Part shown: positions 9,659 through 13,811 of the stretch, in pieces
Layout of the letters: each line of letters starts with the position of its first letter
Position numbering within the stretch: position 1 is the first letter of the stretch
NCBI GenBank assembly: GCA_019057815.1
Contig: JAHLWR010000034.1
Span: 1 to 22,097 of the forward strand
Direction: 5' to 3'
DNA length: 22,097 nt
DNA from: Candidatus Heimdallarchaeota archaeon
GTDB taxonomy: Archaea > Asgardarchaeota > Heimdallarchaeia > Heimdallarchaeales > Heimdallarchaeaceae
Translations under genes and position numbers: made by a program
Notes under the pieces: generated by a model
The model's database searches: none
What the model was told of the DNA's origin: nothing
What the model saw: the letters and a program-made list of their open reading frames with translations, nothing else

Positions 9659-10402
9659 ATGAATTTATTAGAGGTAAAAGACCTATCTCTCGTTATTGAT
9701 GGTAAAACTATCTTTAAAGAGGTGAATTTCAAGATATTAAAAGGTGAAATCCATGCTCTTATTGGTGTTAATGGTTGCGGAAAATCTTCTATCGCTAGCG
9801 TTCTTATGGGCTTAGTTTCTCCAACAAAAGGATCAATTTTCCTTGCTGGTGAAGACATTACCAATCTTTCTATAACTGATAGGGCAAAACGAGGATTAAC
9901 TTTAGCTTGGCAAGAACCTACACGCTTTGAAGGGATATCAGTTAAACAGTATTTGGAACTTTCTGGGAAAACAAAAGATATGATACAAATAAGAAATGCT
10001 CTAAATACAGTTGGTTTATTGCCTTCTTTGTATCTTTCAAGAAAAGTTGACAAGTCACTTTCAGGTGGAGAAAGAAAAAGAATAGAACTAGCATCTGTTT
10101 ACTTGTTAAAACCGAAGATAGCGATTTTAGACGAAATAGACTCTGGTGTTGATTATGTTGCCATTGAAAAGGTTCTTGAAACAATTAAAACAATATCTAG
10201 TAAAGGGAGTGTTCTCTTAATCACTCATCAAGATGAATTTCTTAAAATAGCCGATGTAGCGACCTTAATCTGTAATGGTATTGTTCTTCGAACTGGTAAT
10301 CCTAATGAAATAAGTAAATACTACAAATATGAATGTGCTTTCTGTGATGACGAGGAGAGAAGAAAGAATCCATTGGAGGAATTTCTGAATGTCACTGGAT
10401 AG
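9659..10402 (+). CDS. sufC: Fe-S cluster assembly ABC ATPase SufC/SmsC
   Basis: Walker A GVNGCGKS, WQEP, LSGGERKRIELA, LDEIDSGVD, ITH, C-terminal C-x20-CxxC (IC...ECAFC). Confidence 0.9.
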   Translation: MNLLEVKDLSLVIDGKTIFKEVNFKILKGEIHALIGVNGCGKSSIASVLMGLVSPTKGSIFLAGEDITNLSITDRAKRGLTLAWQEPTRFEGISVKQYLELSGKTKDMIQIRNALNTVGLLPSLYLSRKVDKSLSGGERKRIELASVYLLKPKIAILDEIDSGVDYVAIEKVLETIKTISSKGSVLLITHQDEFLKIADVATLICNGIVLRTGNPNEISKYYKYECAFCDDEERRKNPLEEFLNVTG

Positions 10403-11339
10403 AAGAAAAGAATTTGAGATGCTAATGGATGTTTTGGGGAAAGAAGGTGGAGATTCCGAAGCGATTAAGGAAAATCTTGGTGCAAGTATGGTTCTCAACA
10501 AAGATGAAGTCATTCACGTTAATAGTACGAAAGGTGTTATAATCACTTCAGAGAAAATTCAAGATGGTATTAAAGCTCATATCAGAGTTGTAGATAATCA
10601 TAAAGAGGAAAAGCCTGTTCATCTCTGCTTTGGTATGCTTCCGAAAGAAGGAAGACAAGTCATTGAATCTGTTATTATCATAGGAAAAAATGCTAAAGTC
10701 AAAATTATGAGTCATTGCATTTTCCCAAATGCAGTAAATATTGAGCACATAATGGATGGTAAATTGATTATTGAAGAAGGAGGAGAACTCATCTATGAAG
10801 AGGAACACTTCCACTCAGACACTGGAAAAATCAAAGTCGTTCCTAAATTTGAAGCAATCGTGGAAAAAAAAGCTAAGTTTTTCAACAATTTCTACCTCAA
10901 AAAGGGTAAGGTTGGAGAACTATACATTGACTATCATGTTAAATTGAAGGAATCAGCTGTTACCGAACTAACTACTAAAATCTATGGTAAAGAAGATGAT
11001 TTTATCGAAACAAAAGAAAAGATATCTTTAGAAGGAGAAAACGCAAGAGGATTAATTTTGGGCAGGATTGTATTAAAGGATAGAGCTCAAAGCAAGTTTA
11101 TTGGCATAACAGAGGGTTTAGCTCCTAATACAAGAGCCCATGTTGATTGCACAGAAATAATCATGGATCAAGCTAAAGCTTCCGCAATCCCAGAAATTAT
11201 TTCTCATCATCCATCTTCGAAGTTGACACATGAAGCAGCTATCGGACAAATAGATCAAAAACAATTGCAAACATTGATGGCAAAAGGATTAACAGAAGAT
11301 CAAGCGATAGAAATTATAGTAAACGGAATTCTCTCATAA
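10389..11339 (+). CDS. sufB: Fe-S scaffold SufB/SufD-family protein (SmsB)
   Basis: PVHLCFG, SHCIFPNA, RAHVDCTEI, LTHEAAIG...LMAKGLTEDQAIEIIVNG; overlaps sufC. Confidence 0.9.
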   Translation: MSLDRRKEFEMLMDVLGKEGGDSEAIKENLGASMVLNKDEVIHVNSTKGVIITSEKIQDGIKAHIRVVDNHKEEKPVHLCFGMLPKEGRQVIESVIIIGKNAKVKIMSHCIFPNAVNIEHIMDGKLIIEEGGELIYEEEHFHSDTGKIKVVPKFEAIVEKKAKFFNNFYLKKGKVGELYIDYHVKLKESAVTELTTKIYGKEDDFIETKEKISLEGENARGLILGRIVLKDRAQSKFIGITEGLAPNTRAHVDCTEIIMDQAKASAIPEIISHHPSSKLTHEAAIGQIDQKQLQTLMAKGLTEDQAIEIIVNGILS

Positions 11340-11351
11340 ATTCCTTTTCAA

Positions 11352-11765
11352 CTAGTCTTCGATATGTATTTCAATAAATTCATAAGAGAGAATAGCCTTA
11401 GCTAATTTTTCTCTTATTGTTTTTAAATATCTCCAGACTGATGTTTGCGATATATCAATCTTTTGAGTAATTTTTAGCTTTTGAGCTATCTCATCTTGAG
11501 TTAAATTTTCAATGTCAGACATTTTAAGAATTTGAAGTTCAAAACTTGATAATTCTATGATTCCTTTAACAGCAAAGAGATTTCTGTCAAAATCCATTGA
11601 GCGTGCAACCGGTGGGCGACCTCTACCTCTTCTTCTACCCATCCCTCTACCCATCCCTCTACCGTCATAAGGACGACCATTATAACCTCTATCAGAACCG
11701 CGCAACCTGTTAAAAAAGGGACGATTATCAGCGTCACTGTCTTGATTATCTCGGTTGTTTTCCAA
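11352..11765 (-). CDS. DUF134 (UPF0251) HTH protein with Gly/Arg-rich N-terminus
   Basis: GRPP...ELSSFELQILKMSDIENLTQDEIA...SQTSVWRYLKTIREKLAKAI; TTG start supported by AGGTG 7 nt upstream. Confidence 0.75.
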   Translation of the reverse strand: MENNRDNQDSDADNRPFFNRLRGSDRGYNGRPYDGRGMGRGMGRRRGRGRPPVARSMDFDRNLFAVKGIIELSSFELQILKMSDIENLTQDEIAQKLKITQKIDISQTSVWRYLKTIREKLAKAILSYEFIEIHIED

Positions 11766-11815
11766 GCTATTACACCTGTGTAGAGAAATAAAAAAGATAA
11801 GAATTTAAAAAGATT

Positions 11816-12202
11816 TCATTGTTTATCTTCAGTTTTTATTGATTTGAGATATTCAATATCTTTTTGAAACGATTCTACCTGTTTCTCAATCCAGGAAATT
11901 TCATACTCTATAGTCTCTGCATTTAATGGTTTTCCAGCTACATCCCATCTAGCATCAACAGGTGGTGAATATATTCCTTCTTCAGATATCTGAGATTGAT
12001 ATTCTGGATTTACCCACCAACCTCTTGGGCGATCTGGGAACCAATCACAGTTTGGACTTACGAATCTTCTCCCATAGCCTCTTCCACCGTAAGCAGCATA
12101 ACCTCTTCCTCTTCCATATCCTGGACCATATCCTGAACCATATCCATATCCATATCCTGGACCATATCTCATAAATCTACGTCTTCCAAACATTTCAATC
12201 AC
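11816..12202 (-). CDS. DUF5320-like Gly/Tyr/Arg-rich protein with C-terminal coiled coil
   Basis: (GYG)n/GRG repeats, CDWFPDRPRGWW, C-terminal EISWIEKQVESFQKDIEYLK; alternative ATG start at 12193. Confidence 0.65.
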   Translation of the reverse strand: MIEMFGRRRFMRYGPGYGYGYGSGYGPGYGRGRGYAAYGGRGYGRRFVSPNCDWFPDRPRGWWVNPEYQSQISEEGIYSPPVDARWDVAGKPLNAETIEYEISWIEKQVESFQKDIEYLKSIKTEDKQ

Positions 12203-12917: not shown

Positions 12918-13811
12918 ATGGAGAAAAAAGAAAATAATTTTTTATCACAAAATCAAACATCTTCGAGTAACTTCAGTTGGATACTTGACGAATTACCTTA
13001 CGGAATATCTGTACAAGATACAAATCGTACTATTCTATATGAGAATAAAAAAGTAAAAGAGCTTTTAGGAACATATATGGGAAAAAAGTGTTTTAAGAGA
13101 TGGACCTATATTCCAGGTGAAGGTCAAGCTCCTTGTCGGGATTGTATGATGGCATTAATAATTAAAGACAAAACCGAGCATAAAGTTTTTCGACGAACAA
13201 TTAACAAGCAAGGTGAAGAAATGTTCCTAGAAATCCATCATATCCCCCTAGTTGAAGAAAGCGGAGAAGTTAATCTATATATTCAAATAATAGAAGTATG
13301 TACAGTACTCGACAAAGGAAAAGTTCTCTCTATTCAGACACCAGAACAAGTGCTAGAAAACGTACAATTCTCTATTGTTCAATTTGGTGATTTAGGGGGA
13401 GAAATTGTTACAACAGACAAACTTTCATTTGTTGAATCTAATAAACTTGAGGAATTTCTAATTAAGATAACAGTTTACATCTTTGGAGGGTTGATTCAGG
13501 GAGTTGAAGATCAAACAGGATTGTTTGGACCGCTTCCTGTGTTAGATAGAACAGAATATGAAATGCTTGCTTATCTTTTCCAAATACGTAATGATTTAGC
13601 TTTAGATCCAAGAAAAAGGGGGATAGAAAGATGTATGTTGTTAATATTTCTGAAAAGGGAATACAACTTTATTTTTGAAAAAAGGAAATTGATTGCTAAT
13701 TTCTTAGCTGAAAAAGTTGATGAGTGGGGCATTCTGCAAAATATTTCTCCTAAAGAACATGAGATATTTGCAACTGAGTTACGTAGTTTATTGAAACAAC
13801 TAATAATGTAA
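12918..13811 (+). CDS. PAS-domain protein with C-terminal longin/uDENN (folliculin-like) domain
   Basis: N-terminal PAS: ILDELPYGISVQDTNRTILYEN...GKKC...PCRDC. C-terminal: FSIVQFGDLGG, GLFGPLP, FQIRNDLALDPRKRGIER. Confidence 0.7.
   Translation: MEKKENNFLSQNQTSSSNFSWILDELPYGISVQDTNRTILYENKKVKELLGTYMGKKCFKRWTYIPGEGQAPCRDCMMALIIKDKTEHKVFRRTINKQGEEMFLEIHHIPLVEESGEVNLYIQIIEVCTVLDKGKVLSIQTPEQVLENVQFSIVQFGDLGGEIVTTDKLSFVESNKLEEFLIKITVYIFGGLIQGVEDQTGLFGPLPVLDRTEYEMLAYLFQIRNDLALDPRKRGIERCMLLIFLKREYNFIFEKRKLIANFLAEKVDEWGILQNISPKEHEIFATELRSLLKQLIM

Follow-up and report, generated by a model that had tools for sequence, protein, structure and literature searches.

What might a protein do that carries a PAS sensor domain at one end and, at the other, a domain resembling the folliculin class of eukaryotic GTPase regulators? 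This question is raised by a gene in a 22,097-nucleotide stretch of DNA from Candidatus Heimdallarchaeota archaeon (assembly GCA_019057815.1, contig JAHLWR010000034.1; hereafter the window, with a G+C content of ~33%), whose product we call P0001. An earlier note on this DNA, made from the sequence alone, had described the product as a PAS sensor fused to a folliculin-like longin/uDENN domain that retains the arginine of a GTPase-activating protein (GAP). The gene is real and conserved: the predicted open reading frame (12918-13811, 297 residues) is complete and its full-length homologues share 84-93% (close) and 52-55% (more distant) identity with P0001. The best explanation of the data, to which as a whole we give about an even chance, is that this Heimdall-group Asgard archaeon uses P0001 as a soluble, one-component-style signalling protein, whose longin domain would bind a small GTPase and act as a GAP, with arginine R232 as the arginine finger. 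The features of the gene and its product are listed below.

12918..13811, + strand: complete open reading frame of the PAS-longin protein P0001, 297 amino acids plus stop (homologues; AlphaFold2 (AF2) model of the full-length protein, mean predicted local distance difference test score (pLDDT) 88.9)
12975..13298, + strand: PAS domain, residues 20-127 (TIGR00229, PAS_9, model topology, Foldseek, Atlas)
13089..13181, + strand: Cys3-His site, putative metal or iron-sulfur (Fe-S) ligands C58 (13089-13091), C73 (13134-13136), C76 (13143-13145) and H88 (13179-13181) (conservation)
13314..13355, + strand: two short linker helices between the PAS and longin domains, residues 133-146 (DSSP on the AF2 models)
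13356..13808, + strand: predicted longin domain, residues 147-297, ββ-α-βββ-ααα, folliculin/NPRL2/SMCR8 class (AF2, Foldseek, VIA-align, Atlas, hhalign)
13386..13403, + strand: β1-β2 loop G157-D-L-G160-G161-E162, at the position of the 'GP motif' (FLCN G15-P16) (conservation, hhalign loop alignment)
13494..13541, + strand: family-specific motif (G)Q194-G195 ... G201-L-F-G204-P205-L206-P207-V208, from the end of α1 into β3 (conservation)
13605..13613, + strand: D230-P231-R232 on the β4-β5 loop, R232 being the candidate arginine finger (FLCN R164 equivalent) (conservation, HMMER, hhalign)
13617..13619, + strand: R234, the arginine named in the earlier note; not conserved (family counts)

The C-terminal half of P0001 escapes sequence databases. 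Residues 132-297 matched nothing in Pfam, NCBIfam or the PDB sequences, residues 140-297 had no Pfam family at E≤10, and a profile of the whole family found no match among PDB sequences. An exhaustive search yielded 109 cluster representatives carrying this domain; 112 domains were aligned for modelling and for conservation, and architectures were counted in 116 members. Modelling residues 147-297 with AF2 from the 112-domain alignment and searching the model with Foldseek, a check that the earlier note had suggested, returned a longin fold. The model has a pLDDT of 92.5 and a predicted template modelling score of 0.88, with the order ββ-α-βββ-ααα (domain-model elements E19-26, E29-35, H43-62, E70-77, E80-93, E105-115, H116-122, H125-139 and H147-165). 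Its top match is the Lokiarchaeal Roadblock-Longin 8yqg (Foldseek E 1e-4; VIA-align Z 12.3, root-mean-square deviation 2.8 Å over 134 residues, 15% identity), followed in the Foldseek ranking by FLCN and NPRL2. VIA-align Z scores were 11.1 for Lst4, 10.1-10.6 for FLCN (~136 residues aligned), 9.1-9.6 for C9orf72-SMCR8 entries and 8.5-8.7 for GATOR1/SEAC entries (NPRL2/NPRL3 chains). The nearest ESM Atlas cluster is Heimdallarchaeal and carries PF11704 (Folliculin) on 23% of its members; the next clusters are Asgard GTPase-longin fusions, C9orf72 and an archaeal NPR2-like cluster.

By predicted fold and profile homology, then, the ~150-residue domain that the earlier note had placed here is a longin, closest to the GAP class (folliculin/NPRL2/SMCR8). 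The folliculin-like longin part of that assignment agrees with AF2, Foldseek, VIA-align and hhalign (97% probability, see below), and the uDENN label has to be dropped: P0001 stops at residue 297 after three longin helices, and no DENN domain follows them. A second PAS- or GAF-type domain at the C terminus was also considered, and was rejected as the leading interpretation on the longin Z of 12.3 versus 8.0 for the best PAS-type chain (4r3a) and on the 97% profile match.

Pfam Folliculin is found above cut-off in 51/301 genomes of the phylum, and neither it nor NPR2 (PF06218) is among the top 25 Pfam families of the 116 members. At the sequence level, the link to folliculin-type longins came from profile-profile comparison. 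With hhalign, the 112-member family aligned to 16 Asgard PF11704-positive longins at 97% probability (E 2.3e-10, 165 columns), and the GP loops coincide in this alignment. These sixteen longins carry the patterns ...FDdk.GP... and ...F.I.D..ARGG.R..., and their ARG motif aligns in turn with the arginine segment of FLCN (hhalign, 79%). The earlier note had set P0001 directly against a human FLCN segment, without gaps over 25 residues and with seven identities. The segment as given there is correct, with 100% identity to primate folliculins in the protein database, and it anchors the numbering: the Arg of SLARG is residue 164 in folliculins of 579 residues. The same 25-residue register was recovered in a direct hhalign comparison of the family with vertebrate FLCN, itself not significant, in which R232 pairs with R164 after an insert of 3 residues and G204-P205 of P0001 aligns with the G-P of GPIFFGD. 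The insert had previously been counted as 5 residues; it is 3, because the conserved arginine is R232 and not R234. The correspondence drawn between SIVQFGDLGG of P0001 and LCHFCELHGP of FLCN also stands, both being at the β1-β2 loop.

Conservation in the 112 domains singles out three loops. R232 (codon 13611-13613) is Arg in 110/112 domains; the position of R234, to which the GAP arginine had been assigned, is Arg in only 10/112, Lys in 46/112 and Glu in 13/112, and is K, M or K in close homologues. Comparing the two positions, as had been proposed, therefore favours R232, which the earlier note had itself named as the alternative, and its expectation of an arginine on the loop of FLCN R164 holds for this residue. 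Near-invariant as well are G160 (105 of the 112), Q194 (104), G195 (100), G201 (110), G204 (107), P205 (105), L206 (103), P207 (112) and D230 (107), and position 161 is Pro in 52/112 and Gly in 26/112, with Gly in P0001. In the full-length AF2 model, R232 lies in a loop (residues 225-235) between strands E211-224 and E236-246. The arginine fingers of GAP-class longins (FLCN R164, NPRL2 R78, SMCR8 R147) occupy this same β4-β5 loop. R232 pairs with the ARG-motif arginine in the HMMER alignment, while one hhalign run, against the Asgard PF11704-positive longins, sets it one residue off. From these alignments, R232 is a candidate arginine finger equivalent to FLCN R164. The β1-β2, α1-β3 and β4-β5 loops would by longin topology share one end of the sheet, and so their conserved residues should form one surface. 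The GP motif of the β1-β2 loop has been described as specific to GAP-type longins and their Heimdall relatives (PMC12290439).

At the other end of the protein, the PAS domain lies at residues 20-127, close to the ~20-130 given previously. TIGR00229 scores 27.4 bits on P0001, above its cut-off of 22.9, and Pfam PAS_9 scores 24.8 bits (E 2.7e-5), just below its cut-off of 27. The region is modelled as a canonical PAS fold of topology ββ-ααα-βββ, Foldseek matched it to the PAS domains of NifL, LOV, DosP and FixL, and an Atlas feature search with P0001 returned PAS clusters only. The motif C58-x14-C73-x2-C76, to which the earlier note had drawn attention, is present and kept among 40 PAS-longin homologues (C58 in 33/40, C73 in 31/40, C76 in 32/40), as is H88 (26/40). 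Together these residues form a Cys3-His site between Eα and Fα, the cofactor region of PAS domains, where the AF2 model has a pLDDT of 90-93. A metal centre, whether an Fe-S cluster or zinc, is the most likely occupant of the site, in which case the PAS domain would most likely report redox, oxygen, sulfide or metal status.

The nearest analogy is NreB, whose PAS domain holds Fe-S clusters on three or four cysteines in this region: a [4Fe-4S] cluster on CX2CX11CX2C in S. carnosus and a [2Fe-2S] cluster on CX2CX11C in B. licheniformis (PMC13478379). P0001 resembles NreB-type PAS domains in its three conserved cysteines, including a CxxC, in the N-terminal half of the domain. It differs in their order and spacing (CX14CX2C), in the additional H88 and in its output, which is a longin in P0001 and a histidine kinase in NreB. 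Since the motif CX2CX11C(X2C) is not found in P0001, membership in the NreB-type Fe-S PAS family was rejected and NreB is kept as an analogy only. An alternative, to which we give somewhat less than an even chance, is that the Cys3-His site is no Fe-S or metal sensor and instead binds zinc for structural purposes or works as a thiol/disulfide switch; this alternative is compatible with any model of the output. Zinc is often held by Cys3-His ligand sets and explains the site just as simply, and the spacing is unlike that of the NreB motifs; against this, the site falls in the very Eα-Fα cofactor region where NreB-type PAS domains hold their clusters (PMC13478379). Only one other PAS domain in the source genome matches the Cys-bearing PAS of P0001, namely the first PAS of a 469-residue triple-PAS protein (L048:1-1407; source genome contig C48:214606-216012), which has the motif C-x10-C-x2-C and no Pfam-recognised output domain.

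The combination seen in P0001 is one of several in its family. Among the 116 members, the domain upstream of the longin is PAS in 41, TPR in 16, a receiver domain (REC) in 10 and GAF in 6. The members come from Heimdall-, Hod- and Thorarchaeota, and their NCBI names reflect only the N-terminal parts. All 77 genomes sampled from the class of the window have the longin family, most often with 3-12 copies; in the rest of the phylum it is sporadic, with 0/76 and 2/68 genomes in the two largest other families. The source genome has ~10 copies, including TPR-, PAS- and REC-longin proteins and three with an N-terminal longin. In two paralogues on contig C46 of the source genome (L007:946-1941 and L009:901-1950, both - strand), an N-terminal longin is followed by ~180 residues without a Pfam match. 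The Hodarchaeales protein P0040 (542 residues) has a REC-PAS-longin architecture and its gene is convergent with that of a PAS histidine kinase (L040:1766-4406), which suggests a phosphorelay from the kinase to the receiver-longin protein. Since paralogues carry this longin module behind receiver, GAF and TPR domains too, the family gives the impression of a general-purpose output domain by which prokaryote-type sensors are connected to eukaryote-like small GTPases. The one-component idea of the earlier note, a sensor input with a GTPase-regulating output on one polypeptide, fits these PAS-, REC-, GAF- and TPR-longin architectures and the GTPase operons of some paralogues, described next. The tie to Rag/TORC1-type nutrient signalling that the note also drew gained no support.

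The source genome encodes at least 36 clear small GTPases, and some lie beside members of the family. On contig C35 (C35:12105-14899, L035:1105-3899, minus strand), an operon encodes a 338-residue GTPase, a 335-residue GTPase (after a 4-bp overlap) and a 256-residue longin-family protein with YGPE and TDER motifs (after a 3-bp gap). The 338-residue GTPase is Arf/Rag-like, and the 335-residue protein is a paralogue that keeps the P-loop and NKxD and has EADEE in place of the DxxG of switch II; it is possibly a pseudo-GTPase or a locked partner. By analogy, the trio recalls a Rag heterodimer with its longin regulator. On contig C36 (C36:111215-118693, L034:716-8194), six small-GTPase genes surround a 458-residue PAS-longin paralogue, and four of these GTPases (298-318 residues) consist of a GTPase domain and a ~130-residue C-terminal extension that is probably, as in Rag proteins, a longin/roadblock domain. 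A sister genus offers two complete genomes (G015 and G068) in which the gene for a 329-residue Rag-like GTPase precedes that for a REC-longin protein on the same strand, and the gene of the closest outgroup PAS-longin, P0010, is followed by one for a 176-residue GTPase.

In the source genome, 2/10 family genes lie within 500 bp of a small-GTPase gene, compared to a background of 1.9% (binomial P 0.014), with thresholds for this test, including the 500 bp, that were chosen post hoc. The linkage is not general: in complete genomes of other families (G256, G213 and G045), every family member is more than 5 kb from the nearest Arf-like GTPase (E≤1e-20). No GTPase gene neighbours the homologues P0007, P0013, P0014, P0040, P0052 and P0056, and for P0011 and P0012 the contigs end too soon to say. 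Complex prediction was applied to the C35 trio with GTP, that is, to paralogues and not to P0001. The trio reached an ipSAE of 0.51 versus 0.07 for the best control and 0.00 when GTPase 1 was replaced; the runs shared at least 60% of contacts and the pLDDT of the partner was at least 78. In calibration, the mark was reached by 58/80 solved complexes and 2/110 mismatched pairs, and at scores of 0.60 or below it was reached by only 7/80 solved complexes and by both of the passing mismatches. The prediction gives weak support to a GTPase-longin association, and the pass may reflect likeness to known structures, since similar Rag-longin complexes are solved.

In the mechanism that we propose for P0001, the Cys3-His PAS domain would be the input and would read a metal- or redox-type signal. 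The longin surface formed by the three conserved loops (G157..G160-x-E162; Q194-G195...G201-LFGPLP; D230-P-R232) would dock a small Arf/Rag-like GTPase, R232 would serve as the arginine finger that speeds GTP hydrolysis, and the PAS domain would gate access or dimerisation. The most specific version, in which a metal/Fe-S-borne redox, oxygen or sulfide signal at the Cys3-His PAS directly gates a GAP activity of the R232 longin on a Rag/Arf-like GTPase, we consider rather unlikely.

Several observations weigh against this explanation. Longin GAPs of eukaryotes are active as heterodimers, and a second longin to pair with was not identified for P0001, with no such gene beside its own. Neither is there a GTPase gene near P0001, contig C2 being without one, nor near the genes of P0007, P0013, P0014, P0052 and P0056. 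Pfam Folliculin matched neither P0001 nor anything else in the source genome at E≤1, and hhalign of the family directly against vertebrate FLCN was not significant (probability 1.4%), in part owing to an FLCN profile built solely from near-identical vertebrate sequences. That R232 matches FLCN R164 in space is deduced from the shared loop and from sequence alignment, and where the GP motif has its proline, P0001 has Gly and its closest relatives have Gly, Ala, Ser or Thr. In structural score the domain is only modestly nearer to the GAP class than to non-GAP longins (AP sigma Z 9.0, TRAPP 8.6, VAMP7 8.2). On the input side, the cysteine spacing differs from the NreB motifs and the Cys3-His site could simply be structural zinc, as discussed above. 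Finally, most characterised longin/roadblock domains are components of guanine nucleotide exchange factors (GEFs) or platforms, not GAPs (PMC10933270).

The last point leads to a different account of the longin, in which it binds GTPases or roadblock/longin proteins without catalysis, as a platform, an exchange-factor subunit or a dimerisation/adaptor module of the TRAPP, Mon1-Ccz1, Ragulator or MglB type, and the conserved arginine serves binding or structure. The longins of AP sigma, TRAPP and Mon1-Ccz1 match at Z 7.9-9.0, 8yqg, which heads the structural matches, is a longin dimer without an assigned activity, P0001 has no GP proline, and Liu et al. (bioRxiv 10.1101/2020.10.19.343400) proposed a GEF role for the Asgard FLCN-like module. 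However, the near-invariant β4-β5 Arg and the β1-β2 Gly(-Pro) are common to this family and the GAP-class longins and are not shared by other longins (PMC12290439), and GAP-class longins rank above GEF longins in Z; we regard a non-catalytic role as possible, on balance doubtful. It is also conceivable that the C-terminal domain is a ligand- or protein-binding module of the profilin-like fold class (PAS, GAF and roadblock relatives) without any GTPase role, its conserved loops binding a small molecule or a non-GTPase target. PAS-type structures do match the domain (4r3a, Z 8.0), tandem-PAS proteins were aligned by Foldseek across the whole of P0001, most family genes, that of P0001 included, have no GTPase neighbour, and NitrOD3, a roadblock-related output domain of receivers in Thaumarchaeota, has no known GTPase link (PMC5847659). 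We find this quite improbable, given that longin matches outrank PAS matches (Z 12.3 versus 8.0), that the single long α1 and the C-terminal helices are of longin type, that profile homology to the PF11704-positive longins reaches 97%, and that operon linkage to GTPases occurs in four independent contexts, to which the C35 complex prediction adds weak support.

The gene for P0001 is flanked by a divergent DUF1684 gene on one side and by a luciferase-like oxidoreductase gene on the other. It is probably transcribed on its own, judging from an A/T-rich TATA-like stretch 5' of the gene and T-runs 3' of it. 'Candidatus Heimdallarchaeota archaeon 8H_bin2' has a 93%-identical copy with the gene order preserved around it, and the neighbourhood is lost in more distant homologues; a related-locus search with P0001 alone returned only one near-identical relative. 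Located 1.6 kb upstream, at window positions 9659-11339, are genes for a SufC-like ATP-binding cassette ATPase and a SufBD-core protein (Fe-S cluster assembly), on the same strand as the gene for P0001 and separated from it by three minus-strand genes. Their proximity to a gene for a Cys-bearing PAS is probably coincidental, because this order is kept only in the near-identical relative (L013). Two small genes at 11352-12202 (- strand) encode proteins with Gly/Arg/Tyr-rich low-complexity N-termini, one of them a DUF134/helix-turn-helix protein (137 residues) and the other (128 residues) without a family.

A first known system with which P0001 can be compared is the longin domain of FLCN, the catalytic subunit of the FLCN-FNIP2 GAP for RagC/D (PDB 6NZD, 6ULG, 8DHB). 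The two are alike in predicted fold, in the β3-β4 register (GP...F.I.D), in the β4-β5 Arg (R232/R164) and in the β1-β2 Gly. They differ in that identity is ~10% and the direct profile match is not significant, in the 3-residue insert before the Arg and in the upstream sensor domain of P0001, which lacks a DENN domain and the long inserts of FLCN and for which no FNIP-like partner was identified. The best structural match, 8YQG, is a longin dimer and likewise an Asgard longin joined to another domain; it is a fusion with roadblock, whereas P0001 is a fusion with a PAS sensor.

Fusions of Asgard NPRL2-like longins with two-component signal-transduction domains were described by Liu et al. (bioRxiv 10.1101/2020.10.19.343400, Fig. 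5c), who inferred prokaryotic signalling wired to 'eukaryotic' regulators and also reported the full folliculin-type architecture, with DENN, in some Heimdallarchaea. P0001 shares with those fusions a GAP-class longin and prokaryote-type sensor or receiver modules on one Asgard polypeptide, here a PAS domain plus a longin. That paper has no residue-level analysis, whereas here the Heimdall-centred subfamily (GQG...GLFGPLPV...DPR), R232 and the Cys3-His PAS partner are defined. Heimdallarchaeial FLCN/SMCR8-type longins with the GP motif and an arginine finger have been proposed as GAPs for ArfR or Rag-like GTPases (Traffic 2025, PMC12290439). These resemble P0001 in the longin fold, the β1-β2 Gly(-Pro) with a conserved Arg beside it and the prominence of Heimdallarchaeia; sensor fusions are not mentioned there, and P0001 has G-G for G-P. 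Because Pfam Folliculin misses it, the family of P0001 is probably a subfamily different from those annotated in that study. The sensor-longin concept is thus already published and P0001 is a further example of it; the new elements are the Cys3-His PAS input, the pinpointing of R232 and a class-wide subfamily unseen by Pfam.

The origin of eukaryotic membrane and nutrient signalling is one reason to ask how Asgard archaea regulate their dozens of Ras-superfamily GTPases. To our knowledge, GAP activity towards an Asgard small GTPase has yet to be demonstrated. Sensor-longin fusions rank high among Asgard GAP candidates, as the input domain hints at timing and the conserved Arg allows a clean mutational test, and P0001 adds a compact example of 297 residues with a probable metal-binding PAS input. 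The paralogues in GTPase operons would be better first targets, because the P0001 gene has no adjacent GTPase gene. If the most specific version of the mechanism is true, P0001 would combine sensor and GTPase off-switch in a single polypeptide and offer a living model of environmental sensing coupled to Rag-type GTPases before TOR.

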